The notes below the pieces were generated by a model. It was not told the origin of the DNA. It worked only from the letters and a program-made list of their open reading frames with translations, and did not search any database. The translations under genes were made by a program, and so were the position numbers. 64,000 nucleotides of DNA from a virus (lineage: Duplodnaviria > Caudoviricetes): the IMG/VR virus record IMGVR_UViG_3300021425_003554; one strand, 5' to 3'. Every line of letters starts with the position of its first letter. Within the stretch, counting starts at the first letter, position 1. Below are positions 13,344-55,933 of the stretch, piece by piece.

Positions 13344-14827
13344 AAAACTTTTACTCCATATTTGTTGGTAAATGCTTTACCATCATCTTTGTCATTTACT
13401 ATAGGTTGTCCTTTTATATTCAAACTGGTGTTAAGCAGTATAGGGCAACCTGTTTTCTTTTTCCATTGCGTAAGCAATTCATAAAACCCTGGATTGTCTG
13501 CTTTAGACACTGTTTGAACCCTACTCGTGTTATCGTAGTGTATTATGGCAGGAAAGTCTTTACCATGCGTACAAACCGCTGTGTGTTGCATATAAGGGGT
13601 GTTTTTAACACCTTTAGGTAGGGTAAAATACTCGTTCACATCCTCTTCTAATATGGCTGGTGCGAATGGTCTAAACTTCTGTCTTTTTTTAATACCATTT
13701 ACCAAATCCTTGATTTTTGATCCTCTAGGATCAGCAAGTAATGATCTATTACCAAGTGCTCTTGGTCCAAACTCCGCCCGACCATTAGCCACTCCCACCA
13801 TTTTATTTTCCAACAATTCCTTTATGAGAGCATCCACAGGATATTCTCCCTCTATGTTCGTGCCCAAAAATGGATGTTTCCAATTTAGGTGTCTGTGCAT
13901 CGAAGCGGCTATACAACCCAACGAACTACCCGCATCTCCGGGGTTGGGCATGATCCATGATTTATCGTATATTTTCTTGTTCATTAAGATTGCATTGGCC
14001 ACACAATTTAATGCCACGCCTCCACCATAACATAAATTACGACTTTCACCATATTTGCTCACAGCACGTTGTCCGTCTGGTATGTAAGTCGTACTCCATT
14101 GCCATATATGAGTGAGTGCTTCTTGTATGACTTTTTGAATGGATGCGGCAAGATCCATGGGATCCGCTTCCGGTAACCAATTTCCTATTCCTCTGTGTAA
14201 ATTTCTTTTTAATTCCAGGGTTCGATAATCTAACAATTCATTGTAGATATTATCTCGGTACTTTGGTGTTCCGTATGCTGACATTCCCATCAATATGTAT
14301 TCTTCCTCTGCGGGTTTCAATCCAACTCTTTGTGTAAAAGCAGAATATAAGATTCCCAGTGAATGAGGATATTCCATGCTTTCCAGTTTTTCTATTTCGT
14401 TGCCTTTGGCTTTCCATATAGTCATAGTTTCCCATTCTCCTATGGCATCCACACACAACACCATGGAATCTGTAAAGGGCGATGTGAAAAAACTTCCGGC
14501 CGCATGCGAATGATGATGATCTACATACTGGTCAATTTTGATTCCAAACTGTTTTAAATGTTCCGATGGCAGATTCTGTGTTGTAAAAACTTCCGACCAT
14601 TGTCCCGCTCTAATCTGTCGTTTCTTTTTTAACCATGGTTTTTCATAATACACCACTTTGTCAAAAGGACCATAACTCATTGCCTCGTTCACTATCCCCC
14701 AGTTCAGGTGATGATCATTTTTTATCTTGCTGTATCTCTCGCTATGTGCGGCCCATAGAATATCTCGGCCGTCAACCACAGCCATGGCGGCATCATGATT
14801 CATACAATTTATTCCTAATATTCTCAT
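13340..14827 (-). CDS. NodU/CmcH-family carbamoyltransferase
   Basis: HDAA, SERYSKIKND, HHHSHAA, DAIGE, GGVALN, PGDAGSSLG, EFGPRALGNRS, RPFAP, LNTSLN. Confidence 0.93.
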   Translation of the reverse strand: MRILGINCMNHDAAMAVVDGRDILWAAHSERYSKIKNDHHLNWGIVNEAMSYGPFDKVVYYEKPWLKKKRQIRAGQWSEVFTTQNLPSEHLKQFGIKIDQYVDHHHSHAAGSFFTSPFTDSMVLCVDAIGEWETMTIWKAKGNEIEKLESMEYPHSLGILYSAFTQRVGLKPAEEEYILMGMSAYGTPKYRDNIYNELLDYRTLELKRNLHRGIGNWLPEADPMDLAASIQKVIQEALTHIWQWSTTYIPDGQRAVSKYGESRNLCYGGGVALNCVANAILMNKKIYDKSWIMPNPGDAGSSLGCIAASMHRHLNWKHPFLGTNIEGEYPVDALIKELLENKMVGVANGRAEFGPRALGNRSLLADPRGSKIKDLVNGIKKRQKFRPFAPAILEEDVNEYFTLPKGVKNTPYMQHTAVCTHGKDFPAIIHYDNTSRVQTVSKADNPGFYELLTQWKKKTGCPILLNTSLNIKGQPIVNDKDDGKAFTNKYGVKVL

Positions 14828-15207
14828 AAAGATTCTATATATTTTTTTAATTCTTTATCCTGCACATCGGTAGGTATTTCATTTTTGTAAAATATCCTAT
14901 AACTATCACTGCCATATTTTCCTATTCCGTGTAGATCCGACGCATCTTCACCATCCCAGGTTAAAAATTGCTCGCTCATTTTTCTCAATCTTTCCGATCT
15001 CACACGCCACATTCCCAAAGGTTTTAATAATTTTTGCTGTGCTGATAATCTACCTTTGAGGTAACTTTTGGCATTCGGATATCGTTTGAATAATTCACTT
15101 AAAACACGTTTGGCTTGTTTTCTGTAAGTTTGATTGAGGCAGATAACACCCACCATGTGTTGCCATTTGTTTTTGACCTGCTGTTGTACCATTAGATCTT
15201 CTCTCAT
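14824..15207 (-). CDS. MBD4-like HhH-GPD DNA glycosylase (stand-alone catalytic domain)
   Basis: W..MV..ICLNQT, LLKPLG, HhH LHGIGKYGSDSYRIF and QDKELKKY parallel the MBD4 motifs LNRT, LLKPLG, LHGIGKYGNDSYRIF and EDHKLNKY. Confidence 0.78.
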   Translation of the reverse strand: MREDLMVQQQVKNKWQHMVGVICLNQTYRKQAKRVLSELFKRYPNAKSYLKGRLSAQQKLLKPLGMWRVRSERLRKMSEQFLTWDGEDASDLHGIGKYGSDSYRIFYKNEIPTDVQDKELKKYIESL

Positions 15208-15569
15208 ATCAGTTCTCCACGATCACGCATCTGTTGTCTTATATTTGTTGCGGATATCTTTTGAGTTTCTTCATCTAACACTATTTCTTCTATTTTGTAA
15301 CCCACACCCCTGCCATAACATATGTTTGTTATGTTGGGTACTAGTATCACTTTGAACTGCCCTTCAAACTCGGGATTGAGCCTTTCCTCAATATTTTTCT
15401 TAACAGTTTCAAAATCAAATGGATTGTCATCAACACCTTGTACATCTCTGACCATTATCAATACCTGCCCTGTTTTTTTGTGTATCTCCTGGAACAATTT
15501 ATAGTGCCCGTCATGGAACGGTTGCCATCTTCCTAGCATTTGTGCTGTTGGTTTTTTATTGTCCCACAT
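15204..15569 (-). CDS. HxGH nucleotidyltransferase (cytidylyltransferase/NadM-like)
   Basis: LGRWQPFHDGH motif and C-terminal ISATNIR. Confidence 0.8.
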   Translation of the reverse strand: MWDNKKPTAQMLGRWQPFHDGHYKLFQEIHKKTGQVLIMVRDVQGVDDNPFDFETVKKNIEERLNPEFEGQFKVILVPNITNICYGRGVGYKIEEIVLDEETQKISATNIRQQMRDRGELI

Positions 15570-15993
15570 TTTTCTTCTCCCATATTATATCTCGTATTTC
15601 CTGTGTTATCAAAAATGCCCAAGTCTCAGCATCTTTTGATGTACATCTAAAATCAAACGTTGTCGGTGGCTGAAAAAGTTTGTTGGTGTCCTCAAATCTA
15701 CCCTCTTTGATTGTGTCCATCCATATCAGATAATCTGCTTTGAATTGTGCTCTTGTTTCTTCAGTGGGGCAAACAAAATCAGCGATCACAACTCTGCCTT
15801 TGTCTAACGCCTCTTCGGCGTACGTCCACATCCTCAGTGCTTGTCTCTTTCTGCCTTCGTCTGAGAAATCCCAATCATTGCATTCTTCTCTTATCTTGTC
15901 AGCATTTAGCCATACAGCATTCAACCTTGGTGCTATCATTTTTGCCAATGTAGTTTTGCCCGATCCGGGTAGTCCCATTATCAATATTTTCAT
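15556..15993 (-). CDS. adenylylsulfate (APS) kinase-like P-loop kinase
   Basis: GLPGSGKTT, LNADKIR, DWDFSDEGRKRQ, ADFVCP. Confidence 0.75.
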   Translation of the reverse strand: MKILIMGLPGSGKTTLAKMIAPRLNAVWLNADKIREECNDWDFSDEGRKRQALRMWTYAEEALDKGRVVIADFVCPTEETRAQFKADYLIWMDTIKEGRFEDTNKLFQPPTTFDFRCTSKDAETWAFLITQEIRDIIWEKKNVGQ

Positions 15994-16553
15994 TTTAGTT
16001 TAAAAAACCCTTTCGCTCTTTCTAAATACTTGTTCCATTGTTCCAGTGTAATGTCATATTCAAAATTTTGTGTTGTGTCGTTGCGTTGTAATAGTTTTGC
16101 TCCGTTCTTTATATGAAACCTTTCGGCCATTTCTGTCAAAGGACTTAAAGTGACTAATCTTTCTATGTGTTGTTCTCTTTTAAATTTTTTAAAAATTTCG
16201 TTTAATATGTGTTTTCCGCCACCTTTCATTTTGGCCCAAACTGTATAAGCAACTGCTATTTTTCCCACTATGCCTGCCCGCAACACTGACGGACCGGCCG
16301 CATCACGACTCAACATATCTAGTTCTTCGACTGTTGTGGGGATTTCATTTGTGAATGCTATGCATATGATTGCCATGATATCACCATTTTTGTTTTTGAG
16401 TCCATAAATTTTTCTTCCGTAGATAGTACGAAATGTGAGAGACAATTCCGGTCTCACCGGATCCTCTGTTATATCTATATCATTCATTTCGATCAAACTA
16501 AATTTAGAATTCTTTCGAAAAATATTGTTTATTTTTTCTTTTAATTTTTCCAT
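15990..16553 (-). CDS. miniature malonyl-CoA decarboxylase-like (GNAT-fold) protein
   Basis: ICIAFTNEIP, AVAYTV, LVTLSP and RFHIKNGA parallel the MCD motifs VAL...I, AIFYSI, TLSP and RFHLxNGA. Confidence 0.55.
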   Translation of the reverse strand: MEKLKEKINNIFRKNSKFSLIEMNDIDITEDPVRPELSLTFRTIYGRKIYGLKNKNGDIMAIICIAFTNEIPTTVEELDMLSRDAAGPSVLRAGIVGKIAVAYTVWAKMKGGGKHILNEIFKKFKREQHIERLVTLSPLTEMAERFHIKNGAKLLQRNDTTQNFEYDITLEQWNKYLERAKGFFKLK

Positions 16554-17204: not shown

Positions 17205-17309
17205 TTACTTGTAAATAAAAGGGTCTTTTTTCTTTAATTCTTTTAGTCTTTTTCTATAAGCAATTTGTTGCTTTACTTTATCAATCAAAGACCTAATCCA
17301 TTTGATCAT
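17205..17309 (-). CDS. 34-aa basic microprotein absent from the ORF track
   Basis: hand translation MIKWIRSLIDKVKQQIAYRKRLKELKKKDPFIYK; AGGAG SD 7 nt upstream; TAA lies 1 nt before the FkbM ATG. Confidence 0.75.
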   Translation of the reverse strand: MIKWIRSLIDKVKQQIAYRKRLKELKKKDPFIYK

Positions 17310-18102
17310 TTTTTTCTCCTATTATTTTTTTAAATTCGGGTAACATTAACATTATAGCATCTTTATGTGCTTGGTCAAGCGGATGAGTTGATGCTCTCGG
17401 ATAGTCATTTAAAAGTGCCCATTGGTTAAATCCCATATGCCTGTCTCCAAAAGTGAACCATTTGGTAAAATCTATTTCTTTTAAAAGATTTTTTAATAAT
17501 TTGTCGTTTTGGTATAATAATTCAAATTCTTCCCAGAATAATGTGTTATCGGCGAGTGTAAACATAAATGGTATTTTCTTTTTTTCTAATATATTTTGTA
17601 ACCAAACGATGCTTTTCCAACTTAGATATGTTTCATGATAACGATTTGCCGCATTCTTATAAAGTGAATCGGCAAATGCTGTGACTTTCGCATCAGAAAA
17701 CTCTTTTCTTCTTTTTTTAAAATCTTGTATTACTGAATCATTACCTATCAAAGTTTTTAATACTTCTGCTTCGTTTTCTGTACAGTCCCAGGGGGTTATA
17801 GTGGCCCAACGAGTATCTTCTAATATGTTATGTCTAGGCATCGCCCAATCATAACGTGAAGGAAAAGTCCACATAACAGTCACAGCAACCTTTCTGTTAT
17901 CGTTGTCCGAAACTGCGTTGAACACCCTTCTGGCTATACCGGAGTTCCCTAACCCTCCTTTTGCCGAATTGACAAAATCCATGCCTGTTTGTTGTGACAA
18001 TAATGCCGCCCATGACATTTTTGAAGGATTGATACCATCGTCGTCAGATAATTCGTTACCAAATGTAAAACTACAACCACCTGCTACCAATACGTCACTC
18101 AT
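17293..18102 (-). CDS. SGNH/GDSL-hydrolase-like protein
   Basis: block I GGCSFTFG, block II GG.GNSGI, block V-like STHPLDQAH. Confidence 0.6.
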   Translation of the reverse strand: MSDVLVAGGCSFTFGNELSDDDGINPSKMSWAALLSQQTGMDFVNSAKGGLGNSGIARRVFNAVSDNDNRKVAVTVMWTFPSRYDWAMPRHNILEDTRWATITPWDCTENEAEVLKTLIGNDSVIQDFKKRRKEFSDAKVTAFADSLYKNAANRYHETYLSWKSIVWLQNILEKKKIPFMFTLADNTLFWEEFELLYQNDKLLKNLLKEIDFTKWFTFGDRHMGFNQWALLNDYPRASTHPLDQAHKDAIMLMLPEFKKIIGEKNDQMD

Positions 18103-19294
18103 AAATCTTTAATAGATTATTTAAATCCTTAAAAGTTTCTCCGAAATTTTCTTTCCTGACGGAATCGATTGATTTTATTTTTTCAGTTAATGCTTTTTTC
18201 CAATCCTTAATCTTGTAGTCAGGTTCTCCGTTAATATAGTCAATAGCCGTCTGTATTTCTTGTTGGTATATTTCAGTTTTTCTAAGTTTGTCAATTATCT
18301 GTTGCTTGAGCTCTCTAGGAATCTGTTGTATATCAAACTCCACAGGATGATGCAATATGTTTATGTACCAAAAATCTGGATTCCATTCTTTTACTTTATG
18401 TGCTAACTCGTCAATGTTCCATATGTTAAAAAAATTTAGAGTTGTGCATATCTGCGTAGAAAGATTTTTTAATCCTGAATTTAAAAATCGATTTATGTTT
18501 GAATCAACTTCTGTCCATACAGCAGGATGTCTTTGATACTCAAAACGTTTTTCAATATCGTCAATGCTGAATGCTATTTCTACCCTTTTAAAATGTGGCC
18601 AAATGTCTTTTACTGCTTCTTCCGGATACTGTGTACCATTGGTGTTGTAATGAACTTCTATTTTATCTGCCACTCCTGCTTCCACACACTTACGTAAAAT
18701 TGAAAATTGCTCTTTTATCATTAATGGCTCTCCGCCCGTGATCTCAAAAAATCTTATCGAGTCTATGTGCTTCTCTAGATCTTCATAAAATTTGTTAGGC
18801 TGTCTTGGCCATAATCCATCTCGATTGAATTTTTTCCAATAGTCTTTTCTGTTCGGGTCTATCTTGATCATGTCGTTCGTCCATTGAGAACTTGAGTGAG
18901 GCGAACATATTCTACATTTTAGATTACAAATATTCCCCAACTTTAAATCAATAAACCTAGGCGAAACTATATTTTTTTGTATATGAGTTTGACCTATTAC
19001 TCCTGCCTTTAACCACATATGTTGTCTCTTTGAAGTTTTACCCACTGCTTCTTCTTTCCAACAACTGCTACAACTACTGGGTTTTTCTCCATTTAAAAAT
19101 TGTTTTCTCAAATCATCCATGGCATCGGAATTCATTACTTCCGATATCGAATGTTCGGTTGTATTGTATTTTTTCCCGGAAGTGTCTTTCAATTCTTCCC
19201 TATACAAACAGCAAGGCTTGTACCTGCCATCGGGCCTAGTTTCTAAACTAGTCCATGGAAGATGACACATATTACTTTTTAAATATTTTTCCAC
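18095..19294 (-). CDS. radical SAM protein with N-terminal SPASM/twitch-like domain (type A)
   Basis: CHLPW...PCC...CSSC, then CNLKCRIC (CxxxCxxC), ITGGEP, YNTNGT, FSID. Confidence 0.9.
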   Translation of the reverse strand: MEKYLKSNMCHLPWTSLETRPDGRYKPCCLYREELKDTSGKKYNTTEHSISEVMNSDAMDDLRKQFLNGEKPSSCSSCWKEEAVGKTSKRQHMWLKAGVIGQTHIQKNIVSPRFIDLKLGNICNLKCRICSPHSSSQWTNDMIKIDPNRKDYWKKFNRDGLWPRQPNKFYEDLEKHIDSIRFFEITGGEPLMIKEQFSILRKCVEAGVADKIEVHYNTNGTQYPEEAVKDIWPHFKRVEIAFSIDDIEKRFEYQRHPAVWTEVDSNINRFLNSGLKNLSTQICTTLNFFNIWNIDELAHKVKEWNPDFWYINILHHPVEFDIQQIPRELKQQIIDKLRKTEIYQQEIQTAIDYINGEPDYKIKDWKKALTEKIKSIDSVRKENFGETFKDLNNLLKIYE

Positions 19295-20592
19295 CAGTCT
19301 AATATCCTTTTATCTTTTTCAAGTATTTTTGTTATGTCTTGATTCCTTAATTTATCGATTGATTCTTGTCTGCTCTTGCCACTCTTTTTTCCCCTGAAAG
19401 CATCAAATCCTAAAAACATATCATCGATATTTGCTCTCATCTTTAAATTTTTGAGAGTGTCTATCAATGCCTGTTGTTTTCTGTTTGCCTTTGGTTCCAT
19501 GTATTCTAATGCTTCATCTATAATTTCGCACATGAGTTCTCTAGGCAATGCCAACGGACTCAACACAGCCGATGCACTAAAAGTGAACATCACTTTGGTC
19601 AATATTTCTACATCTAATTCCCGGCTCAGATCAAACATATTTTTTAATTCTAATAATCCTGGCATTGTGATTGTGAAATCTAATCTCATTTCCCTTGATG
19701 TTTTTGCTACCGCCAATCCTTTTTTAAAATTACCTAACCATTCTTTGTAATTCAATCCATCACGTATGTATTCTCCCACATCTCCTGTTCCGTCGATCGA
19801 AGCACATATTTGCCAATCCTGAAACTGTGGCAACAACTTAAAAAGATCAATATTCTTAAATGTTGTTCTACTTAAATTGGTATTATATCTAACATAAACA
19901 TCCTTTGAAAATCCCAAATCAATTATCCTTTGCATACTGTTCCAGTGTATTTCCCACATCAACGGTTCTCCGCCACACCAATATATTTCTTTTATTTTTT
20001 TTGTTTCTATCGCATCAGTAAACTCTTGTACTATTTGTGTGTCTTGAAAATTTTTAATTTGTTCACGCAACGGAGAAGCCATCCATGGTTGAGAATCTTC
20101 GTTCCATGTTTTGTTTTTCCTCGACTCGGCTTCCCAACTGGAACTCAACATATCTCCGCACATTCTACATTTGAAATTACATAGATTATTAAATCTATAA
20201 TCAAAACTTATCGTAGGCATTGTGGTTGCTCCGTTTTCGTCTGTGCTTTCAAATGCTTCGTCTATTTTATTAGCAAAGAGTTTGTTCCAATAAGATCTAT
20301 AGACATTTGTATTCAACAGTTTATGATCACATACCTGGCATTCGGATAATTCTTCTCCGGCTAGCATTCTTCGTCTCACAGAACGCATATGTTCTGAATT
20401 CCAATGTTCTTCTAACGTTAGAGGTTTATACTCATTGGCATCATTTCCTGTATCTATGTACTGCTTAAAACTTTGTGCTGGTTCTCTTGAAGCACAACAC
20501 ATACGCCTTTCTGTTTGTGGAGAAAGGTATGTGTGCGTCCAAGGCGCCATACAAAATGTTTTATTGCCTTCGTTAGGCTTAATTTTTTTCAT
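19279..20592 (-). CDS. radical SAM protein with N-terminal SPASM/twitch-like domain (type A)
   Basis: CMAPW...MCC...CQVC, then CNFKCRMC, CGGEP, YNTN, ASIDG; ATG at 20592 preferred over 20643. Confidence 0.9.
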   Translation of the reverse strand: MKKIKPNEGNKTFCMAPWTHTYLSPQTERRMCCASREPAQSFKQYIDTGNDANEYKPLTLEEHWNSEHMRSVRRRMLAGEELSECQVCDHKLLNTNVYRSYWNKLFANKIDEAFESTDENGATTMPTISFDYRFNNLCNFKCRMCGDMLSSSWEAESRKNKTWNEDSQPWMASPLREQIKNFQDTQIVQEFTDAIETKKIKEIYWCGGEPLMWEIHWNSMQRIIDLGFSKDVYVRYNTNLSRTTFKNIDLFKLLPQFQDWQICASIDGTGDVGEYIRDGLNYKEWLGNFKKGLAVAKTSREMRLDFTITMPGLLELKNMFDLSRELDVEILTKVMFTFSASAVLSPLALPRELMCEIIDEALEYMEPKANRKQQALIDTLKNLKMRANIDDMFLGFDAFRGKKSGKSRQESIDKLRNQDITKILEKDKRILDWWKNI

Positions 20593-21871
20593 ATTTGTCA
20601 AATAACTCTTTCCATTCTGGAAATATTTCAAGAGTATTTTCATTTCTTATCTTATCATATCTCCGTGTATTAACAAAAAATAGATCTAGATGTTTTTGGT
20701 TATCTGTTGAGAACATCCAATCCAATGCAGATTCAAAACCTTTTGTTGCCCTAGTAAGGGAATCCTGGTCCTTCAACCATTTGATGTGTTCATTGTATTT
20801 CTCTTTCACTTGTTCCTTATATTCCGGAGGCAATATGTCCATCCGTTGCCATATAGGATGTTGTAATAAATTAAAATTAAAATCTTGTGGTTTAATCAGA
20901 CCTTGTTCTACCCAACTTTTATGGAAATCAGTGACATGAAGACTGTTTATAAGTCCCACCGTTGAACTGATATAAAAGTCCACTTGCGGACATATTTCCA
21001 TCATACGCTTTCTATTGGCTATTATTTGTTCCCACACTGTGCCTTTACGCATTAATTCTGCTCTAGGACCCTCGGCATCGAGACTGGCTCCAACTGACAC
21101 TGAATCAAATTTATTCCATAATTCAAAAACATCTATGTCCTTAAATGTCGTTCTACTAAAGTTGGTATTGTATATAAGCCTAACATGATACATTTTACGT
21201 TTGTCTAGTTCTTTTAAAATACGATAATGTTCTTCCATTATTATTGGCTCTCCACCAGCAAAATAAAACTGTTCTGTGTGCTCAAACTGTTCTAGCATCT
21301 GTTCCCATAGATCATTTGTGCTTCTACCAACTTTCATTACCTTGGCGTGTGGAGGAGGACTACCTGTAAGTTTTTTGTGATCTTCATACCAGTTACTACT
21401 GAACCATGTTCCGCAACTCCTACAAGCCATGTTACATAAATTTGAAAAACGTATATCCCAATATTTCATAACAAAATCTGCTTTGCCGTCTGGAAGCGTG
21501 TTGTGTACTAACGGAATGTTATGACCAAAATGTTTGTTAGAACTTAGACGTAGGCTAAAAAATCCAGATTTCTCTTGATCGTAACATTTCATACACTCTC
21601 GAGATTTCTGATTGTTCAGCATACGTATTCTCATGTCTTTCATTTTGTCACCGTTGAAAACTTCTTCCATGCTGTTTTCATTTAGATTTCCCACCGGATA
21701 AGGATCAAACGCAAAACAACAAGGATACGCTCTGCCATCAGGATATGCATGAAGATGCATCCAAGGTAGTATACAGAAAGTGTCACTTTCGATCAGTAAC
21801 TCTTTCTCCCTATCGGTCATGTCTTTTATTTTTAATTTTTCAGGCTCTTTGGCCCCGTACTCATATGCCAT
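20579..21871 (-). CDS. radical SAM protein with N-terminal SPASM/twitch-like domain (type A)
   Basis: CILPW...PCC...CMKC, then CNMACRSC, AGGEP, YNTN, ASLD. Confidence 0.9.
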   Translation of the reverse strand: MAYEYGAKEPEKLKIKDMTDREKELLIESDTFCILPWMHLHAYPDGRAYPCCFAFDPYPVGNLNENSMEEVFNGDKMKDMRIRMLNNQKSRECMKCYDQEKSGFFSLRLSSNKHFGHNIPLVHNTLPDGKADFVMKYWDIRFSNLCNMACRSCGTWFSSNWYEDHKKLTGSPPPHAKVMKVGRSTNDLWEQMLEQFEHTEQFYFAGGEPIIMEEHYRILKELDKRKMYHVRLIYNTNFSRTTFKDIDVFELWNKFDSVSVGASLDAEGPRAELMRKGTVWEQIIANRKRMMEICPQVDFYISSTVGLINSLHVTDFHKSWVEQGLIKPQDFNFNLLQHPIWQRMDILPPEYKEQVKEKYNEHIKWLKDQDSLTRATKGFESALDWMFSTDNQKHLDLFFVNTRRYDKIRNENTLEIFPEWKELFDKYEKN

Positions 21872-23204
21872 TGTACCATTCTCCTATAATTGGGAAAGTT
21901 TTTTTGAAATCCTTGCCCCTACGTTTGTCATATTGACTATAAAATGCCTTAAAATCTTTTTGTAATTTATCCTGTGTGGCCGCACCTGCGTGTGGTGTTT
22001 TGACCACATCAAGGTAATCTATTAATCGTGTTGTGTGATTTATTTCCATTTGTTCCAACCATTTTTCGTTGTTCGTTAAAAATTTTTCAATGTCACCTTT
22101 AAATCTGTTTCTTAATTCGTCAGGCAATACTAACGGTGATTGGAAACTAGGAAATCTTAATATGTTGAGTGTGTAATTAATCTTTGGTCCATAGACCTTG
22201 CTAGAATGTTTGAACCAAACAATCTTTTCAAGAAATTCCGGTAACGATTCTAAACACAATGCATTGATTGTACACATATTGTGGATCTCTACCGGCACTT
22301 TATCTACCATCATGTGTAACACTCTGCTGAACCAATCTCCATAATCCAATCCATCTCTGATATATTCTGCTTGTTTAAAAGTTGCTTCATTACTGGTGTA
22401 TAAATGAAAGTTTTTAAATCCTTTTAGTTTAGTTTTAAAATCATCGATTATGCTTTGTTTTGCTCCTAGATTAGAATTGATAGCAATACGCATATCTGGA
22501 TTCATTTTATCACCTTGGGTTTCTATCCAATCTAGCAATCTCCATAGGTGAGGAGACATCATTGGTTCTCCACCTGTTATTCTTAGTTCATCTAAAGTTT
22601 TATGTAGGTCCGAATCCCACCATTTAAAAAATGCTTCCACATACGGATTGGTCTCATTTAATTTATACGGTTGTGATTCTTCATGAGAATGTGTGAAATG
22701 ATTACGTCCGTCTGATTTTAAATCTGTATAGGGTCCTTTTTGTTTGATGTCGTTTGCCCACGTCGACGAAAATGCAGGATTACAGTAAGAACAAGCAAAA
22801 TTACAAGTTCTATCAAATGCAATTTCTAAAGTTTTGAGATTGATATCTTCGGTTATAGGAGTCTGGCTTGCTGTTATCATGTCTGCATTAGAATATATTT
22901 TGCTTTTATATACTCTATCGCTTACAGCATCTCTTTTCATGTCCTCTATCTTCCAACAATATTCACAACCTGCGGGTCTTTCTCCCGCGATCATTTTGGC
23001 ACGATCGTTTTTCTTTTCCGGAGTATTGTGTAACAATTTTGGATTCTGCGTTACTTTAGCAAGATCAACTTTGTGTGCTGGCGGATGGTGGCAACTTGTG
23101 GTCATGCCAGATCCCAGCCATATGGTAGCATTGTACCATTTTGCTCCACAAAACGATGGAGATATCGAATCTAAAAACTGTTTTTTGTAATCTATATCTT
23201 TCAT
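21861..23204 (-). CDS. radical SAM protein with N-terminal auxiliary-cluster domain (type B)
   Basis: CGAKW...SCHHP...CEYC, then CNFACSYC, ITGGEP, INSN. Confidence 0.9.
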   Translation of the reverse strand: MKDIDYKKQFLDSISPSFCGAKWYNATIWLGSGMTTSCHHPPAHKVDLAKVTQNPKLLHNTPEKKNDRAKMIAGERPAGCEYCWKIEDMKRDAVSDRVYKSKIYSNADMITASQTPITEDINLKTLEIAFDRTCNFACSYCNPAFSSTWANDIKQKGPYTDLKSDGRNHFTHSHEESQPYKLNETNPYVEAFFKWWDSDLHKTLDELRITGGEPMMSPHLWRLLDWIETQGDKMNPDMRIAINSNLGAKQSIIDDFKTKLKGFKNFHLYTSNEATFKQAEYIRDGLDYGDWFSRVLHMMVDKVPVEIHNMCTINALCLESLPEFLEKIVWFKHSSKVYGPKINYTLNILRFPSFQSPLVLPDELRNRFKGDIEKFLTNNEKWLEQMEINHTTRLIDYLDVVKTPHAGAATQDKLQKDFKAFYSQYDKRRGKDFKKTFPIIGEWYNGI

Positions 23205-23803
23205 TATATGTACTTAAACACTTTCTCTGCCCACTGTTTATTTTGTTCAATCGTCATATGATTTATTTTTCCTTTGCCCCAATGATCTCGGCCACCACTG
23301 AAACTGAACATACTTTCATCGATGAATATTCCTGTTGTTAATTTTATATTGGCATTTTTGTCTGCCGTTTCAAATGGTTTAAAACTCCACATCTGTATTA
23401 TTTTTTTGTTTTGTAATTTAGATAAAACGTGTTGATCATAATATTTCAAAGCATACTCGTATGCTAATTCGTCCTTGTCATAATTGTGTAAATGTTTCCA
23501 ATAATTTTCCAGTGTTTTATAGATGTCTGGGTCTACTCCTTCCAGTGGTTCTGTGTTGGCACTCAATATCAAATTCGGATGGTATAGTCTATATGGTTCT
23601 GTCCAACAAAATATCGAATAATCCGGAACACGATCTTGTTCTATCAATTTGTTAAACCTAAAAAATACACTCCATATGCTTCTTCCAGGTTCGCCAAACC
23701 ATCGTATACGATCACAACCTAATTTCTCTTGAAGTATATTACACCAACTCTCGGATTGATTGCTGGCACAGAAACTATCTCCAAAAAATCCTATTGTGCT
23801 CAT
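23204..23803 (-). CDS. SGNH/GDSL-hydrolase-like protein
   Basis: IGFFGDSFC (GDS block I), GEPGRS, terminal INH motif. Confidence 0.6.
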   Translation of the reverse strand: MSTIGFFGDSFCASNQSESWCNILQEKLGCDRIRWFGEPGRSIWSVFFRFNKLIEQDRVPDYSIFCWTEPYRLYHPNLILSANTEPLEGVDPDIYKTLENYWKHLHNYDKDELAYEYALKYYDQHVLSKLQNKKIIQMWSFKPFETADKNANIKLTTGIFIDESMFSFSGGRDHWGKGKINHMTIEQNKQWAEKVFKYI

Positions 23804-25170
23804 GAGTTTCTACACTCCTCCCAAAACTCTCGCATTTCAGGAAATATTTTTTCAAAATTTGTTCTTCGTCTACGATCGTGTTCTGTAAAAAATGTGTAAA
23901 AATTCTTTTTTTGTTTTTTATCATCGGTATAATTTTTTTGCCAATAAGAAAGATTACGTTGCATTTTTTGTATTTCAAAATCTTTAAACAACGAAAAATC
24001 TTTTTGATTCTCTCCCGAATTCGATTTCATCCATTCAATATTGTCTTTGTGTATCTCTTGATACGATTCGGGTAATAGTGTTACTTGTTGCCATTCTGGT
24101 TGACGTAGTATGGGTATATCGAACCATACTCGTTGATACGTGGTTGAATGTTTTTCTCGAAGATGCTTGATATCTTCAAGTAACTTTCTTAGACCTGTGA
24201 CACTAAGATTGTTATAGGTTATTATGAAGGTAACTGAATTACGTACAGGAATCATTGTCAAAAAATGATCTACGTTGTCTAACATTTTGTTGTAATCGAG
24301 ACCATTACGAATATATTCTGCTTGTTTACCCCAGGTATCTACAGAGACGAACTGCATGAAATGTTCTACTTTTTCTTCATGGCAAATACGACTAACTGCA
24401 TTAAAATATTTTGTTTTTAACTTGGGATCAGGTGGACACATATTCGAAGTTACATTTAGGTGTAGATCTTTTTTTGGATTATCTATGATGTAATCAAATA
24501 CCTTGTAAGTGTTCACATCCATCATGGGCTCTCCTCCGGTCATTCTAAAATGTTTCAATCCCTTATACAATTCAGGCCACCATTTCCAGAATGCTTCCAC
24601 ATACGGATTAGATTCTCTATTTGGTATGGGTTGTCTTCTTCCTGAGAAATGTGTCGGGTCATTGTGTACAGGTGATGTAGGATATCCACCGTACATATTG
24701 ATTTCTTTACCCCACGTTGTTGAAAATTGAGGAGAACAATAGGAACAAGCAAAATTACAGGCATTGTTAAAATTGACTTCTACATAACGAGGAGTATGTG
24801 TTGTATTAAAAGGATCTTGCTTAATTTTATCAAAATCCTCCATGGCCCATGGCTCACCAGAACGATAGTGTCGGTCACTCATTTCGCCAGTGTCTTCCAT
24901 TTTCCAACAGTAAGAGCAACCTGCAGGTCGTTCACCTGCGATCATTTGTTTTCGTTGTCGAATTTTTTCTTCGGTGTTGTGCAATGCCGCTGGATTTGAT
25001 GCCAGCGAATCTTTATCAATCTCATGCAGTGGAGGATGATAACATGAATTGGTTAATCCAGTGGGTAGATGTAAAGACACCTGATTCCATTTTGCTAGAC
25101 ACATCGTAGGCGAAATTGAAAGTAATTTTTCCTTGGCTTTCTCGGCATCTGATTTGTAAACACTACTCAC
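23800..25170 (-). CDS. radical SAM protein with N-terminal auxiliary-cluster domain (type B)
   Basis: CLAKW...SCYHP...CSYC, then CNFACSYC, MTGGEP, VTSN; ORF track start 25236, GTG at 25170 overlapping the upstream stop is likelier. Confidence 0.9.
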   Translation of the reverse strand: MSSVYKSDAEKAKEKLLSISPTMCLAKWNQVSLHLPTGLTNSCYHPPLHEIDKDSLASNPAALHNTEEKIRQRKQMIAGERPAGCSYCWKMEDTGEMSDRHYRSGEPWAMEDFDKIKQDPFNTTHTPRYVEVNFNNACNFACSYCSPQFSTTWGKEINMYGGYPTSPVHNDPTHFSGRRQPIPNRESNPYVEAFWKWWPELYKGLKHFRMTGGEPMMDVNTYKVFDYIIDNPKKDLHLNVTSNMCPPDPKLKTKYFNAVSRICHEEKVEHFMQFVSVDTWGKQAEYIRNGLDYNKMLDNVDHFLTMIPVRNSVTFIITYNNLSVTGLRKLLEDIKHLREKHSTTYQRVWFDIPILRQPEWQQVTLLPESYQEIHKDNIEWMKSNSGENQKDFSLFKDFEIQKMQRNLSYWQKNYTDDKKQKKNFYTFFTEHDRRRRTNFEKIFPEMREFWEECRNS

Positions 25171-26050
25171 GATCCTGCACTCCTTTATTAACATAAGGTT
25201 TTTGACAAAATTTAAAAAAACGACTGCCTTCGGCATTAAAAGTGCTGATTGGAATATCTAATTTTTGTTTCAGACTATTTCCGTACATTTCTATATCTTC
25301 ATCCAAATCATTGATTGCATGAAAAAAACTTTTACAACTGTCTAAGTTTCTAACATTTTCTAAATTAAAATTACTTTTTATGGTTGCTTGATAACAACCA
25401 ACTCTTGCACCTAACATGGCGTATTTTCCATATTCAACATCTGCCCCGATGCTTTGCCATATGGACAGTATTCGTAAATTGTGTTGATGTATCTTATTTG
25501 AAAAATCCAAAGGTGAAATTCTATTACCTTGATCTAAACTCATCTTTACACCTTCTCGAAATCCGGCAACAAATGCCTGCTCCGGTGAAAAGTTGATTAC
25601 TGTATTACTATAAACATTATGTAAATTTTCATGAGGTACTGTCCAACAAAAATCTATTTTGGCTTTTTCGTCCTCTGCATTTTCATGGGTTTTCATTTTC
25701 AAACAGGTTTCTTTATCCCATCCAACGACTCCTCCGTTGCCATATATCAATCCGTTTATTGAATTTTTTGCTTTCCATCTGTGTACTGCTTTTTTATTAG
25801 TTTTCGTCCAATCTAATTTTTGTAATAAAAATGAAGGATCAATAACATTGTCTCCGTCTATGGATATAAAAAAATCTGTTTCTGCGATCTCTGCCGCGGC
25901 TTTGTGTGCATTATCAAAACCTTTGACTCCATCCACACGTTTTGCCCAAGGCACGATGTTTAATAGATTAGCATAATTTTCTTCCTTGTTGGGTTCATAA
26001 AAAGATATGAACACAAAATCTAAATCACTTATTCTAACGGTGTCTGCCAT
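25163..26050 (-). CDS. GT-A-fold glycosyltransferase-like protein
   Basis: DFVFISFYEP..EEN, GVKG, FFISIDGDN (DxD); start at ATG 26050 preferred over 26083. Confidence 0.7.
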   Translation of the reverse strand: MADTVRISDLDFVFISFYEPNKEENYANLLNIVPWAKRVDGVKGFDNAHKAAAEIAETDFFISIDGDNVIDPSFLLQKLDWTKTNKKAVHRWKAKNSINGLIYGNGGVVGWDKETCLKMKTHENAEDEKAKIDFCWTVPHENLHNVYSNTVINFSPEQAFVAGFREGVKMSLDQGNRISPLDFSNKIHQHNLRILSIWQSIGADVEYGKYAMLGARVGCYQATIKSNFNLENVRNLDSCKSFFHAINDLDEDIEMYGNSLKQKLDIPISTFNAEGSRFFKFCQKPYVNKGVQDRE

Positions 26051-38006: not shown

Positions 38007-38014
38007 TATTTATT
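38007..38014 (-). promoter_or_regulatory. T4-like late promoter candidate (AATAAATA)
   Basis: 7 nt upstream of ATG 37999; overlaps the stop codon of the giant ORF. Confidence 0.45.
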
Positions 38015-41000
38015 CAGGTGCATTTGTTGGTTCTCCGTCTATGAATTTAGCCTGTATTGTTGTAGCATTTTGTAAACCCGTTCCATCAGAAGCAGAGTTT
38101 TCGCCCTGTGCATACCATACTTGACCACGTTTTTGTAATATTTTTACCTGTGTTCCAGATGCAGGTGCTGACGATAAAGTCACTGATGCTGTTGATCCGT
38201 CCACAGTGTAATTAGTTGTGCTACCATCTTCGCCAGTGATTAACAATCGTTGACCACCAATGAATATGTCTAATTCGCTGGCAGAAGATGGTGCATATGT
38301 TGTGGTAAATGTAACTGTGCTACCGTCACCTGTGTATGTTTTGATGTGTATAGCATCAGCATAAGGCACCGTTTGTTGGGCTCCTGCGTCTACCACTTTT
38401 GCGCCGGAGGCATGTGCCTTAATTCCTGTTCCGAGTGTTCCTCTACGTAAATTTCCTAATACATTTCCATTCTTGTAAAAATATTCAATTCTTTCTTTGA
38501 CTATGAACACCACTCCCGGTTTCAATGTACTACCATCGACCGGATTCAACCTGCTACCTTCCTCAACTGTTATGGTTTCATCACCAATATCTAATGGTAA
38601 CGACAGTTTTGTCGTGTGTGTTTGACTTATTCTTTTGTAGAACGTTCTGTTCAACATATCTTTAAAAATTCTATAGCCAACAGCATTGATCGCCGAAACT
38701 GCCTTGAAGTACATCACATCTATCCTGTCTGTGAGTAGTATGTTTCTTGAATAAATCTTAATCCTATTTCCTTCCACTAGATAATCATGTCCTGCTACCA
38801 AGGTCTCGCCATTTAACCAAACAAAAACATAATCACTCTTTGTGGGAGTATTTTCTAAATAAAACTCGCCGGAGTATACTCCTTCAAAAACTTCTCTCTG
38901 TTGAGTTGCTCCCAAGGCATTGTTAAATGTCGTGACTGTCAGAGTACTATTTTGTGTCAATGATAACCCGTCGGTTGCGATTTGTGTAGGATCTAGTATT
39001 ATGTCAGATCCTTCGTTGTAATAATGATTACCTATCAAGGTTGTGATGGCTATACTATCTGTCGATAACGGAACTGATAACATTTCTACACTCTGTGTGG
39101 CAGTGTTTATTCTATAATCCGAATATAATACTTTTTGTCTGCCATTTACGTAAACTTTGATTTTTGTTAAATCATTAATCGATGACGTTGAAGGAGATAT
39201 TAATACTCCAAATCTATAAACACTTACAGAAGTGTTCGAACCCGCATTTGATGATGCTTTCAAAGATAATGTGTTTCCAGTAATGCTGGATGAAAAGTTT
39301 AACTGATTTGTTCCGCCACTTGTTGTTATTGAAGGATCAGCATTCAAATAAACATTATTACTTCCGTTGTGTATCAAATTGACTTGATGAATCGATGATT
39401 CTCCTGTGTCGGTATTTTTACTAACAATCACATAAAATCCAGCATAGTAATTAGTAATCAAGAAACTATCAATAGTTTGTTCTGCAGATCCAATAACAAC
39501 AGATCCACGATTGTTGGTACCATCTGATATTTCATCATGTTTCAATAATATTCTATAAGCACGAATCTCTAAACCAGGTTCGTGTCCTGTAACTCGCAAT
39601 CTCACATCTGTTCCTGAAATGTCTGCATCAACGCTGACAAGATCATTACTACCTGTATTCACGTTATTAAACTCACTAACAAAAGCATCAACGTCATTAT
39701 GAACTGCTAATACTTCCAAATTAGAATATTCAGATTTACTAGAATTTTTAACTGATATGAAATATTTTGCTCCTCTGTATGTGCTTTTATTCCAACTGTC
39801 AAATGTTATTGTAGAACTATCAGTGGTTGATCCAGTGATCGTGGATTCTGTACCCAACGCCGATGATGATGTGCTGGTACCTAATCCTATACGAATGAAT
39901 GACGAAGTGTTCGAATCACTACTACCTGTTCCGTAAACTTCTAAATTCGATCCATTGATGCCAGTGCTGTACGTTGTATGACTGCTAGATCCAGTGTTGA
40001 CTCTGAACGCATCTGATATTACTGCGATTGTGCCGTTGTGTGTGACGGACATCACTGATGTTTCGTAATCACCGGAAACTATATTTTTATTCACTGTCAG
40101 ATACCAAGCACCATCGTAAGTTGATGTTGGTATGGAATCCACTACTGTTTGTAAAGTACTGATATTTTCTTTTGATCCTGTTGAAACTGTTTCATAACCA
40201 GAAGAACTTACTGACAATCCACTTGTAGAAAATCCTCTGTAAGAAAAATTCGATGTCGACCCATCTCCTATGTAATATCTGTTATCCGGACCTCTCAATA
40301 TTTTTCCGTCTAACTCCACCATTGTTAAACTGTCATAAGGTCCTACTGCCCCTGGTGGATAAGTCAATCCAAGTCTCACTGTGCTTCCGTCATATGTCAA
40401 TGACTGTGTTCGTAATTCGTAATATGCTCTACCCGATGTTGATGGTTTGTTGAATGACGCTATCTGTACCAATTTTCCAGATGCAGGTGGATTTGCTGTT
40501 GATCCATCACCACTATGTAAATCAACTGTTATCAATTTATTATTAACAGTTGTAGTGAAATTTGTTGTTGGTGTTCCGTCTATCGTAACATATAACTGGC
40601 TGGTCGTTGCACTGACTGATTGTCGTATGATGATGCTGGCACCATCAGACGGTGCGTCTTTTAGTGTAACAAACGATGTTGTTCCATCAACTGTGTAATT
40701 TATTGTGGCTCCGTTGACTCTATCTAATATCACACCATCTATGAAAATTGTCAAATCACTGGCATATTGTGGTGCACTGACGTCTGGACTTGTTGCGAAA
40801 ACTTTTGTGCTACCGTCACCTGTGTGTGACGTATTATATTGTATTTCTTTGGATTCGAAATCATTTCTCGTTGATGTTGAAAAACTAGATGTTGATCCGT
40901 CACCAGTGAAAGTGTCCAGCACCATGTAGTTCACTCCAGAAATAGCAAAACTTCTGATACTGATCGTTTCACCATTGTTGGGTGTTGAATTTAAAGTTAT

Positions 41001-44000
41001 TGTTTTGTTTCCCACGTCAACTGTGTAATCCGTTCCAAGTCTTTTTACCACACCGTTTATAGATACTATAACCGAATCTTGTGTACCCGGATATTGTCCT
41101 ATATCGAATGTGTTTGTTGTTCCGTTCGCGATGTAATTTTTTTGCATCACAAAAGGCACACCTGATTCTGGTGCTGTGTAAACTTTGATGTCTACTGTAT
41201 CAAAAATACTACCTGGTAAATTTTCTTCTGGTGCGTAACTGGTTTCCGGAGTTATGAAAGCATCGCCTTCTAGGATTATGTCACTAGGCGATTGGCCCAA
41301 TACCGATTTTAAATTTCCGCCTGACACTATGCTGTCTAATGTGTCATCGTCTGTGGGAGTTAACACTCCATCCGAATCAAAAGGAATCAACTCGATCAAA
41401 GTATCTGCACTTGCTGGCAAGCCGTCATCGCCTCTAATTGTAAATGATGTTGTTGAACCATCACCTCTGATCACTGTCTTGAATTGTCTCACACGTTTTT
41501 TATTTGCTTGAGCAATAATAGAACCAGTTCCCACTGTGGAATCACTGATGTCAGTGAAATACACCGTGTAGACATCGGTTGGTTTAGGAGCACTTGAAAT
41601 AGTATTAACTTGTTGTATAACAACAATATTTGCACCATTTGCCGGTGCATCTTTGAATACTACGTATGGTGTTGTACCATTAACAGTATAGTTTAATGTA
41701 CTACCATCGATGGATACAGGATCTAATCTAACATTATTAATAAAGATTTTTAAATCATAGATAGTTCTTGGTGCATTAGTTGTTGTACTAGTTGAAAATA
41801 CTTTAGTACTACCATCACCGGTGTGTGTAAATTCTACTTCTTTAGGTTCAAAATTGAATACTATTGTACTGCCATCACCGTAGAATCTAACACTCTGTGC
41901 CAATCCGTAAGTGTCCCAGGTTTGATTATACCAGTCGTCAACGTCCCATCCTTGTGATTTGTCAAATGCTAAACCTGTGACCATCACTCCACCATAATCC
42001 ACTCCAGTCATGACCTGAGATAACTCGTTTCCTGGCATTCCTGATTGTGGTGCGTATAGACCTAATGTTCTTTCTGCCGCTGTGATGTATGATTCATCTC
42101 CTCTGAGTTTTATTAAGTTGTTTAATCCTTCGCTAAATTTTATAGAACTTGTAAAGGCTGTTTCAACTTTGTAAAAATCATTCTCATACCTTAATAGATC
42201 ACCAACAGAATAACTTGTATCCTTGGTCCAAATCAAAACATTTCCTGTTCTTTGTACCCTGTCAAATTTAATTGTTGTTTCTATATCTCTCACTGCATCA
42301 TTTTTTAATACTGCATATGCTTTTGCTGATGATGACGGAGTGTTGTTGTTCGTGCCGCCGCCGGTGATCACCACTGTTGGTGTTGCTGTGTAATTTGATC
42401 CCGGTGTTAAAACATCGATCCTTATCACTTTTCCTCCGGATATGACTGCCCTAGCAGTCGCTTGTAGTGTGTCCGCTGTCGCATATGTGTTGTATAAAGA
42501 ACTCGCTGATGCCTGTGAAACCGATCGACCAGTTTGAGGAATGTAAAATTTTATACCTGGGTATTCCTGGAATGTAAATTCATCACTTAATCCTGTACCA
42601 CCCGATTGTGAGTCTGCTAGATTGGCATCTGCCACCGCGGTATAGGCCGGATAGAAATATCCCGATGTTCCTGATGTTGGTCCTGACAGGCTCAATCCGT
42701 TCACTTGGAAAGGTCCTGTAGTTGTTGTCGCGCCGCCCACCAATGTGATTGTTGGGGCAGTTATATAACCCGAACCGCCATTGATAACTCTTATAGAACT
42801 GACATATTTTTTATAATTGTTTTTCCATTCGTTGTATGGATAAGAATTTAACAATGTCAGATCTGCTTCATTTGTCAATGATAAGTTTCTTATGACAGAA
42901 CCATCATAAATTGCTGGTAAATCAAAGTCGGTATTTGTTCCTTGTTGTGTGTCTAACTTTGTGTAACCCAATTTATATTCTCGAATTTTTGTGTGGAAAG
43001 GTTTGACTTCATTGATGTATGATTCCACATAATTCTCTGTTCCAATTTTGTAAGTTTTTCTTTGATCTAACGGTCTTAAAAAGTTAGTTACATTTATAAA
43101 TGATGTTTTTGCCAACCAATCAACATATATTTGTTCTTCTAAAACTTTTCTTAAACCTATAAAAAATATGTTATTGTACTCAACTAGTAAATCACCTATG
43201 AAAATATCATCTCTCAATGCCTGTAATATTTTTCTTAATTCTATTGTTGGTTCATCGTCAAAGAAGTTTCCATCATATGTGTCCAAACCAGCAAATCCCG
43301 ATGCTTCAACTGTGTAGTCATACAGAGCTCTAGAAAATTGTATTGTTCCGTTTTGGGTGGCGATATTATCCCATCCTGTATTTGTTTTTACAAAAAGTTT
43401 CCATCCTCCGGTATCTGCTAGAGTGACTTTAATAATTTTTCCCACATCTACCGATAGAGTGTCTAATTGATATTGATACGTGACAGTTTGATCAATAATG
43501 CTATCAACCGAATAACCAGAAGCATACCAATCTACATAACTGTAATAGTTGCTTGTTTTATAAGTTTGAACTTTGTTTCTGTTCCACTCAGTTCCCGACC
43601 ATTGATAAACCGCCCAAAGATTTTTACTGTTGACTTCATCGCTTCTTACCAACACATTCAATACTCCGCTGATGTCATTGGTATTGATGTAAGTTAAATC
43701 TGCATATGTATCGACTGCCGTATCCCATTCTCCCGAAGTACTAGTAGGTTCCGGATCTTGCGAATCTAGATTTTTATAATTGATACTGTTGGCAATTTGA
43801 TATTGTGTTAATATTGAATTTGTATATTGTATTATTTCCTGCACAGCATTTAATCTGTTGACATACCAACTTTGTCTAGGTCTTATAGAATTTCCGTATC
43901 TCTGACTCAAAGGTAACGATAGATCAGGAATTTGGTTTCCATAGATATCAGATCCTGTTAAACTATCCCACCATTTTCTTTCAATTTCCTCTGTTGGTCT

Positions 44001-55400: not shown

Positions 55401-55933
55401 TTATCTGATTCCAACGGTTTGCCAAACTTTTGTGAAGACTGATTGACTGCACTTAATATTGCGGTGAACTGTTCTTTGAAATTAGGATTGGTAGCATCGT
55501 TCCATCCAACTGTGACATTAGACAAACTGTTTCCTGCACTGTCTCTGATATCTTGTGTCGTTGACACTGATGTATATTTTAATAATCCAATCGCAGATTT
55601 GTTTCGTTTGGCATTGTAGTTGATCAATCTCGCTAATCTTAAAACTGAATTTCTTCTGCTGGCCGTTTCAAGAAAGTTTTCTCGAGCATTTAAGTCAACT
55701 CTAAAACTTAAACTCTGTGCGATATAGGCAATTAAATCAATTAGTGCGATATATTCCGATGATTCAACAAAATCATTAAAATCATCTGGATAATTTTCTT
55801 TGAGATAAGAAACCATTGTTCTACGCAATGTCTCAAAATCATACGATTTAAAATCTGCCTGTTGAAAAGCCGTATAGATCTTTGTCCAATCTTCCGCAAC
55901 GAGTAATCTGTTTTGTCTATCTGTAGTGGCCAT
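52460..55933 (-). CDS. baseplate wedge subunit, T4 gp6-like
   Basis: DFKSYDFETLR, FNDFVESSE, ENFLETA.RRNSVLRLA, QNRMITAEDY. Confidence 0.85.
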   Translation of the reverse strand: MATTDRQNRLLVAEDWTKIYTAFQQADFKSYDFETLRRTMVSYLKENYPDDFNDFVESSEYIALIDLIAYIAQSLSFRVDLNARENFLETASRRNSVLRLARLINYNAKRNKSAIGLLKYTSVSTTQDIRDSAGNSLSNVTVGWNDATNPNFKEQFTAILSAVNQSSQKFGKPLESDNVGGIKTEVYVVNSSNNDLPIFTFNRAVSGVSRNFEIVPATISGQEAIYEFPPTPGTGFRYVYRNDGAGDNSPNTGFFCLFKQGTLASEQFTISQPTTNFVKTIATNNINNDDVWLYKLDDFNQLESLWTQIPSLTGNNVIYNSLSKDIRNIYNVITKNNDQIDLVFGDGNFSNIPSGAFRCYYRTSDNARYNIQPNDMADISFSIPYVDQFGANQLLTVTASLQQSIYNASATESNDSIKQKASQVYYSQNRMITAEDYNVVPLSVSQEIIKVKSVNRSASGISRTKEVIDPTGAYSNVSTFADDGIIYREESIPQFTFTFTNRNEILDVINSKIESKLSDAYSRQFYYQKYGTQELSTLSASWVSTTTSTNTNTGYFVAGGPLTVGSFSTSNLKHAKPGALIKFVSPDTRKFLNGVLVSSTTDVAEDRAWAKISNVVGDGANSGLGNLESGVGPITLNDIIPSNAVLSAVIPPFTTLLPTELKEDIQNRIETYEEFGLRFDEQDGEWKVITSSNLGSSNTFSLNNAGTNTLTNSDDSWWFKLTNDGNTYTVQYRSLDYIFESVSENKFHYDKTDKIYDYVSGQTVKDTVKILKSNTVPSSGTVIGYPINWQVVDTITESDGYQDNRKVKVGFFDQDDDGVVDNPEIFDIIVEPSQNVASKYVFFEKYISYDNIERYRPKDATSFIVTENESSIILPGNYADKQLFYFYSNDSIKHFDSATTSLVTNTNYIARIGRSSIEFQYKHFVGQSTRVDPAQTNIMDIYLLERSYDQLFRTWLREGGTQPKPSTSDQLRISYSNSLNSLKGLSDQIIYHPVKYKILFGSQADEAFQATFKVVKNASSNITNAIIKTKVIQAINEFFALNNFDFGDTFYFTELAAYIHNQLAPDLLTVIIVPNQAGQSFGSLFQISGASDEIFISGATVDDVVIIDAIGANQISASGTVVTSTTGTTTSGNSTSAVTSVTTSTSGTGSSGSGTGY

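Follow-up and report, generated by a model that had tools for sequence, protein, structure and literature searches.

What is a protein of 187 residues that carries the catalytic motifs of malonyl-CoA decarboxylase (MCD), an enzyme of 400–500 residues, doing in the genome of a marine phage? The gene lies in IMG/VR virus record IMGVR_UViG_3300021425_003554, from which we analyzed one stretch of 64,000 nt (hereafter the window, to which all window coordinates refer; Table 1); a T4-type baseplate hub/lysozyme, virion proteins and an exonuclease encoded in the window attest its phage origin. A preliminary description, made from the letters of the DNA alone, had read the product as a miniature relative of MCD with the MCD motifs in order but much closer together, had assigned it a role in supplying or transferring acyl groups within its operon, and had expected it to be annotated as hypothetical. 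Our results bear out the kinship and the motifs, and named members of the family indeed carry only the label “hypothetical protein”; the tie to the operon was not supported. We show here that this protein, which we call mini-MCD, is a genuine homologue of the MCD catalytic domain, and we propose that it is probably a stand-alone, minimal malonyl-CoA decarboxylase that uses the Ser-His-Tyr machinery of MCD.

All five motifs picked out at the outset occur in the order given in the 187-aa translation: ICIAFTNEIP (residues 63–72), AVAYTV (100–105), the Gly-rich loop and its helix (GGGKHILNEIFKK, 111–123), LVTLSP (133–138) and RFHIKNGA (145–152). In an alignment of 62 diverse family members, reaching down to 30% identity, D31, R34, C64, Y103, T135, S137, A143, F146, H147, N150, G151, A152 and Y166 are invariant (62/62), and G111 and G113 are kept in 59 and 60 sequences, respectively; because this invariance extends over such a range of identity, the motifs are not a product of chance. 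MCD and mini-MCD share one motif order, namely R..R, an (I/V)P strand followed by a helix, AxxY(S/T), the Gly-rich CoA loop, TLSP, RFHxxNGA and N(F/Y)xY, and their Ser, His and Tyr residues align.

Profile comparisons establish the relationship. The only Pfam family matched by the window protein is MCD (E 0.027, 14.6 bits), a match that 13 of 32 close homologues share. When the alignment of 62 members was compared with one of 30 Pfam-verified MCDs, hhalign returned a probability of 97.5% (E 4.9e-12) for an alignment reaching TLSP; without realignment the value rose to 98.3% (E 2e-14), and the alignment spanned the MCD insert and paired RFHIKNGA with RFHLGNGA; in global mode (99.1%) QNFEY was paired with MCD VNYLY as well. 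Ser137 and His147 thus fall on the Ser of MCD TLSP and the His of FHLGNGA. In the reverse direction, a hidden Markov model (HMM) of the family found canonical MCD as its only match in four genomes (three of SAR11 and one of Rhodobacteraceae). The kinship is visible only by these three routes, i.e. the broader Pfam model, the reverse HMM search and profile-profile comparison: an HMM built from 30 proteobacterial MCDs gave no direct match to the window open reading frame (ORF); a sequence search of the PDB with a single mini-MCD protein found nothing, and one with a 32-sequence profile gave only chance-level matches (TCP-1 gamma and TdcF, E 0.03–0.25); and searches of PHROGs and NCBIfam returned no meaningful family, there being no NCBIfam model.

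The predicted structure agrees with this assignment. An AlphaFold2 model built from the 62 diverse homologues has GNAT topology (pLDDT 90.7, pTM 0.83). Foldseek against the PDB placed MCD chains in all of the best 17 positions (E 4.7e-7 to 1.8e-5), directly followed by the first ordinary acetyltransferase (E 5.3e-5). A structure search independent of Foldseek (VIA) ranked the decarboxylase of SxtA first (Z 14.1, root-mean-square deviation (rmsd) 2.8, 157 residues aligned), human MCD second (Z 13.6, rmsd 4.0, 159 aligned), the GNAT-like decarboxylase of GphF third (Z 13.5, rmsd 2.4, 139 aligned) and the GNAT_L domain of CurA fourth (Z 13.4, rmsd 2.7, 143 aligned). MCD and the GNAT-like decarboxylases of polyketide synthases (PKS) thus head both lists, in keeping with the fold proposed at the outset. 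Taken alone, the predicted fold is that of a GNAT, leaning toward the decarboxylases; it is the sequence profiles that make the link to MCD specific.

Published work on MCD provides the frame in which these residues can be read: the catalytic domain of that enzyme adopts a GNAT fold most similar to that of CurA; its dyad consists of His423 and Ser329, with His389 and Thr355 as the CurA counterparts; Tyr456 holds the catalytic His by a hydrogen bond; and where true acetyltransferases have a Tyr as general acid, MCD has this His (Froese et al., PMC3701320). His147 of mini-MCD occupies the position of that Tyr, and judging from the alignment to MCD, Ser137 and His147 would be adjacent in space. 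The Gly-rich loop would, by homology with MCD, bind the pyrophosphate of CoA.

Compared with MCD/MatA (EC 4.1.1.9; PF05292 and PF17408; PDB 2ygw, 4f0x, 4ksa, 4ksf and 4ks9), with which it shares the GNAT-fold catalytic core, the mini-MCD family (140–190 aa) is reduced in two places. First, it lacks the N-terminal helical oligomerization domain (PF17408), only ~16 residues preceding the GNAT core; Pfam gave no MCD_N match in mini-MCD, and an HMM of the MCD N terminus had no match at E 10 anywhere in the six-frame translation of the window. Second, it lacks the poorly conserved insert of 3–5 helices that lies between β5 and β6 of MCD (PMC3701320); a single helix (residues 141–149) occupies this place in our model. 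The shortening is evident in the spacing of the motifs, where the preliminary description had set a gap of a few residues against roughly 90 in cellular enzymes: in the window protein six residues lie between LSP and RFH, and Ser137 and His147 are ten apart, as are their counterparts in every one of the listed representatives (of 150) in which the region is intact. By scanning genome contigs for the back-translated pattern TLSPIPGF, we obtained ~120 loci and ~100 complete ORFs, and in every complete MCD ORF FHxxNGA follows the Ser by 48–112 residues, mostly by 73–91; three of these ORFs were verified as Pfam MCD plus MCD_N (E 1e-88 to 1e-94). The contrast therefore holds, at 10 residues vs. 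48–112.

Mini-MCD is a large family. Clustering at 90% identity gives at least 8000 clusters, and at 50% there are 621 representatives; in IMG/VR, no fewer than 583 viral contigs encode relatives. The GenBank phage collection contains a single protein match, in Pelagibacter phage Mosig (49% identity), and no nucleotide match to the window. Among cellular genomes, mini-MCD is present as one copy in 158 of 301 sampled Pelagibacterales (SAR11) genomes (E 1e-45 to 1e-52) and is absent from all 401 genomes of a phylum-wide sample. A quick maximum-likelihood tree unites the viral and SAR11 copies in one group (98% SH-aLRT); phage and SAR11 copies are thus close kin, and the tree gives no direction of transfer.

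The SAR11 genomes, screened for both forms of the enzyme, provide what is, assay aside, the strongest functional evidence so far. Of the 301 genomes, 81 carry canonical MCD, and the two forms exclude one another: mini-MCD alone is found in 157 genomes, canonical MCD alone in 80, both in one and neither in 63 (Fisher's exact p = 6e-32, kinship between genomes being ignored). In the sole genome with both (G140, contig C1, 1307933–1308356), the mini gene is frameshifted at a run of eight A, and is either a decaying copy or pseudogene, or a sequencing or assembly error; this copy also carries substitutions at otherwise conserved positions (DPDRP and NFGY).

In SAR11 the gene for canonical MCD belongs to an operon with the order CoA-transferase III (divergent), the TRAP-transporter genes DctP, DctQ and DctM, MCD and Dus (e.g. 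genome G027, contig C1, 279500–294000), which we infer to be a unit for the uptake, activation and decarboxylation of a dicarboxylate, presumably malonate; it looks like a malonate-utilization unit in which a CoA-transferase takes the part of the malonyl-CoA synthetase MatB. The CoA-transferase has an orthologue (74–100% identity) in 128 genomes; 76 of them carry canonical MCD, 47 carry mini-MCD and five carry neither. All 12 of the mini-type operons that we fetched are intact (62–92% protein identity), with DctM followed directly by Dus and no remnant of MCD between them. The mini gene lies 1–3 genes further downstream on the same strand in seven of the 12 and elsewhere in the other five; replacement of MCD in place is thereby rejected, as the mini gene does not occupy the MCD slot. 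One such location elsewhere in SAR11 is beside ScfR, a short-chain acyl-CoA regulator, and isocitrate lyase. An operon retained without MCD in mini-MCD genomes, together with the either/or distribution, is the pattern expected if mini-MCD does the job of MCD.

How such a small protein could do so can be outlined from the MCD residues that it retains. The Gly-rich loop would hold the CoA pyrophosphate; Ser137 and His147 would polarize the thioester carbonyl and stabilize the enolate formed as CO2 leaves, with Tyr166 positioning the catalytic His; and Ser137 would then protonate the carbanion to yield acetyl-CoA. In the phage, mini-MCD would serve as a free-standing auxiliary metabolic gene, one common to SAR11 bacteria, that converts host malonyl-CoA, the committed precursor of fatty acids, back to acetyl-CoA; the benefit to the phage, we infer, might be that fatty-acid synthesis is shut off and carbon recovered.

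Several observations weigh against reading mini-MCD as a malonyl-CoA decarboxylase. The Pfam score of the window protein (14.6 bits) falls below the gathering threshold of the MCD family (23.2), and in some Atlas clusters of more distant relatives 31–60% of the members match Acetyltransf_1. In VIA, ordinary N-acetyltransferases (Z 12.9 and below) come within 1 Z unit of the decarboxylases. Phe288 in β4 of MCD is strictly conserved and may cradle the leaving CO2 (PMC3701320); its position is Ala102 in the window protein and Ala in all 32 close relatives, and is Phe in only 31 of the 62 diverse members. Conversely, the invariant D31 and R34, which belong to a DPxRP motif of the family's own, and the invariant C64, which pairs with a variable MCD position in hhalign, have no counterpart in MCD and could point to another substrate or acceptor site. 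The mutual exclusion in SAR11, tested with kinship ignored, could reflect a few clade-level events. Finally, 111 mini-MCD genomes have no CoA-transferase operon, and use of exogenous malonate is therefore not the only role of the family.

Some of these points would be met by the same decarboxylase chemistry acting on another thioester, such as malonyl-acyl carrier protein, methylmalonyl-CoA or another β-carboxyacyl thioester, an alternative that we consider unlikely. It would account for the loss of the Phe288 equivalent, for a substrate pocket that D31, R34 and C64 suggest to be modified, and for the presence of mini-MCD in SAR11 genomes without the CoA-transferase/TRAP operon; and the GNAT-like decarboxylases of PKS and toxin loading modules (CurA GNAT_L, 2ree; GphF, 6mfc; SxtA, 7uci), compact thioester decarboxylases with a His-Thr/Ser dyad that act on carrier-bound malonyl, are among the best structural matches (Z 13.4–14.1) and match as well as MCD itself. 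However, those domains are embedded in megasynthases and act on carrier-protein-bound substrates, whereas mini-MCD is a free protein; mini-MCD has Ser, as does MCD, rather than Thr; and its motifs TLSP, RFHxxNGA and NYxY match those of MCD and not those of CurA, GphF and SxtA, in line with a profile alignment at 98–99%. A Pfam scan of 20 neighboring ORFs found sugar-modifying, radical SAM and unassigned proteins, and no carrier protein, ketosynthase or PKS gene. Moreover, mini-MCD replaces canonical MCD with respect to the SAR11 CoA-transferase operon, which implies a CoA thioester. Malonyl-CoA remains the substrate that we favor.

A different answer to the opening question is suggested by the surroundings of the gene in the window. 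Its start codon overlaps the end of an upstream FkbM methyltransferase gene and its stop overlaps the start of a downstream kinase-like gene, and it is translationally coupled among dehydratase/epimerase, DegT, carbamoyltransferase and FkbM genes; sugar pathways with such enzymes usually need an N-acyltransferase. Mini-MCD might accordingly be the acyltransferase of the cluster, N-acylating the amino sugar made by DegT or a neighboring 34-aa peptide, possibly with malonyl-CoA as a masked acetyl donor. Canonical GNAT N-acetyltransferases (PseH, 4ri1; RimI, 5isv; AANAT, 1kuv) share its fold, its CoA-binding loop and its approximate size and appear among the structural matches (Z 11–12.9), the sugar N-acetyltransferase PseH at Z 11.0; some relatives, as noted, match Acetyltransf_1; and among 29 informative clusters found through the neighboring 269-aa protein, mini-MCD is present in 24. 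We nevertheless regard this as improbable. The other five clusters lack mini-MCD, the 34-aa ORF being followed directly by the carbamoyltransferase, and keep DegT; such a cluster surrounds only about half of the viral copies and none of those in SAR11; every member (62/62), like MCD and CurA, has His in place of the acetyltransferase general-acid Tyr, with a conserved Ser at the end of β5; the window protein matches no canonical GNAT Pfam family even at E 10, nor do 31 close relatives at E 1; and the MCD-replacement pattern of SAR11 would be left unexplained.

The same contexts bear on the broader claim of a role in this operon. We examined the best 80 viral loci; three very divergent representatives sit on contigs of 0.5–2 kb, whose contexts are uninformative. 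The window and 33 of the 80 loci have mini-MCD inside a conserved cluster that consists of four radical SAM/SPASM proteins, the 269-aa protein, the 34-aa ORF, carbamoyltransferase, epimerase/dehydratase and DegT aminotransferase; in a further eight only radical SAM genes lie beside it; and in 39 it is in unrelated contexts, one of which recurs and contains a HAD-like gene, lipoproteins and a putative 2OG oxygenase (labels read from the ORF sequences, with no profile check). In Mosig the gene stands between thyX and a gp59-like gene, and in SAR11 it stands in metabolic contexts. On these grounds the acyl-group role in the operon is not supported, and we reject an obligatory tie of mini-MCD to the sugar/radical-SAM operon: as clusters without the gene, unrelated viral contexts and the location in Mosig indicate, mini-MCD is a mobile, self-contained module, and an accessory rather than an obligatory step of that pathway.

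That mini-MCD descends from MCD but is no longer catalytic and instead binds acyl-CoA or acts as a regulator, for which the missing oligomerization domain and the adjacent ScfR gene in some SAR11 genomes might speak, is very improbable, since Ser, His and Tyr are strictly invariant down to 30% identity, which would be unexpected for a mere binder.

Table 1. Positions of the mini-MCD gene, its key residues and neighboring features in the 64,000-nt window
Feature	Position	Strand	Description and basis
mini-MCD gene	15990..16553	minus	187-aa stand-alone MCD-type GNAT domain (ORF and translation, model, hhalign)
Ser137 codon (AGT), TLSP motif, end of β5	16143..16145	minus	equivalent of human MCD Ser329 and CurA Thr355; from hhalign
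His147 codon (CAT), FHxxNGA motif, helix α4	16113..16115	minus	equivalent of human MCD His423 and CurA His389
Tyr166 codon, NFEY motif, last β strand	16056..16058	minus	proposed equivalent of human MCD Tyr456; global hhalign
Gly-rich loop G111–K114, between β4 and α3	16212..16223	minus	GNAT motif A; aligns with the MCD loop preceding MCD helix α4
Cys64 codon, strand β3	16362..16364	minus	invariant in the mini family, not in MCD
127-aa HhH-GPD (DNA glycosylase-type) protein	14824–15207	minus	inside the sugar-modification cluster
145-aa APS-kinase-like P-loop protein overlapping 121-aa cytidylyltransferase-like HxGH protein	15204–15993	minus	directly downstream of mini-MCD
conserved 34-aa ORF	17205–17309	minus	flanked by the 269-aa and FkbM genes
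269-aa protein	17293–18102	minus	no Pfam match; in tight linkage with the 34-aa ORF
four paralogous radical SAM proteins	18095–25236	minus	Pfam; interleaved with unassigned 447-aa and 199-aa ORFs
4815-aa ORF	38010–52457	minus	followed by a 1157-aa ORF at 52460–55933

The neighborhood has features of its own. Of the 80 viral loci, 41 share the radical SAM block; in three of its proteins (18095–19294, 19279–20643 and 20579–21871) the SPASM domain is N-terminal and precedes the radical SAM core, an unusual order, and the fourth (23800–25236) has a radical SAM match only. All but one of 30 related clusters contain the 34-aa ORF, whose C-terminal 17 residues (YRKRLKELKKKDPFIYK) do not vary among relatives of 65–76% identity; given its place beside four radical SAM/SPASM genes, the product might serve as a peptide substrate, resembling the precursor of a ribosomally synthesized and post-translationally modified peptide, with a conserved Tyr near the C terminus. 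The 269-aa protein may be SGNH-like, as its N-terminal GGCSFTFGNELSDD (GGCSFT) motif resembles that of SGNH/GDSL hydrolases. The pair of APS-kinase-like and cytidylyltransferase-like proteins is rare (9/80 and 4/80 related clusters, respectively), and the HhH-GPD protein is an odd companion for sugar enzymes. The 4815-aa and 1157-aa ORFs presumably encode giant fiber or structural proteins. One relative of the cluster (L007, 3995–4609) carries an alternative-oxidase (AOX/PTOX) gene among its radical SAM genes; PTOX is otherwise typical of cyanophages, and the host of this phage group is therefore not settled.

We found no description of a small form of MCD in the literature that we searched; new here are its either/or distribution with canonical MCD, the evidence from the SAR11 operon and its accessory status in the phage cluster. 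Taking the steps of the argument together, we tentatively propose, with somewhat less than even confidence in the whole, that mini-MCD is the smallest known cofactor-free MCD, that it is the real MCD of about half of SAR11, that the “habitat-specific” distribution of mlycd is partly an annotation gap, and that marine myophages carry the gene as an auxiliary metabolic gene of a new kind, which drains malonyl-CoA from the host and thereby halts fatty-acid synthesis and regains acetyl-CoA while infection proceeds.

SAR11 are the most abundant marine bacteria. If mini-MCD is active, a GNAT core of only ~140 residues suffices for the MCD reaction, and the protein would offer a compact enzyme for engineering and for the study of mechanism. 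If our reading is true, a gap in the metabolic map of SAR11 would be filled, as genomes scored as lacking MCD would carry an unannotated substitute, and the CoA-transferase/TRAP operon, presumably for malonate use, would make sense in the genomes that have mini-MCD. Canonical MCD (mlycd) has been described as a habitat-discriminating gene that is differentially distributed among genera of Pelagibacteraceae (PMC12636525), and the passage on it mentions no substitute; that habitat reading would then need to be revisited. Control of malonyl-CoA, and thereby of the precursor of fatty acids, would likewise join the host pathways that are targeted by auxiliary metabolic genes of phages.

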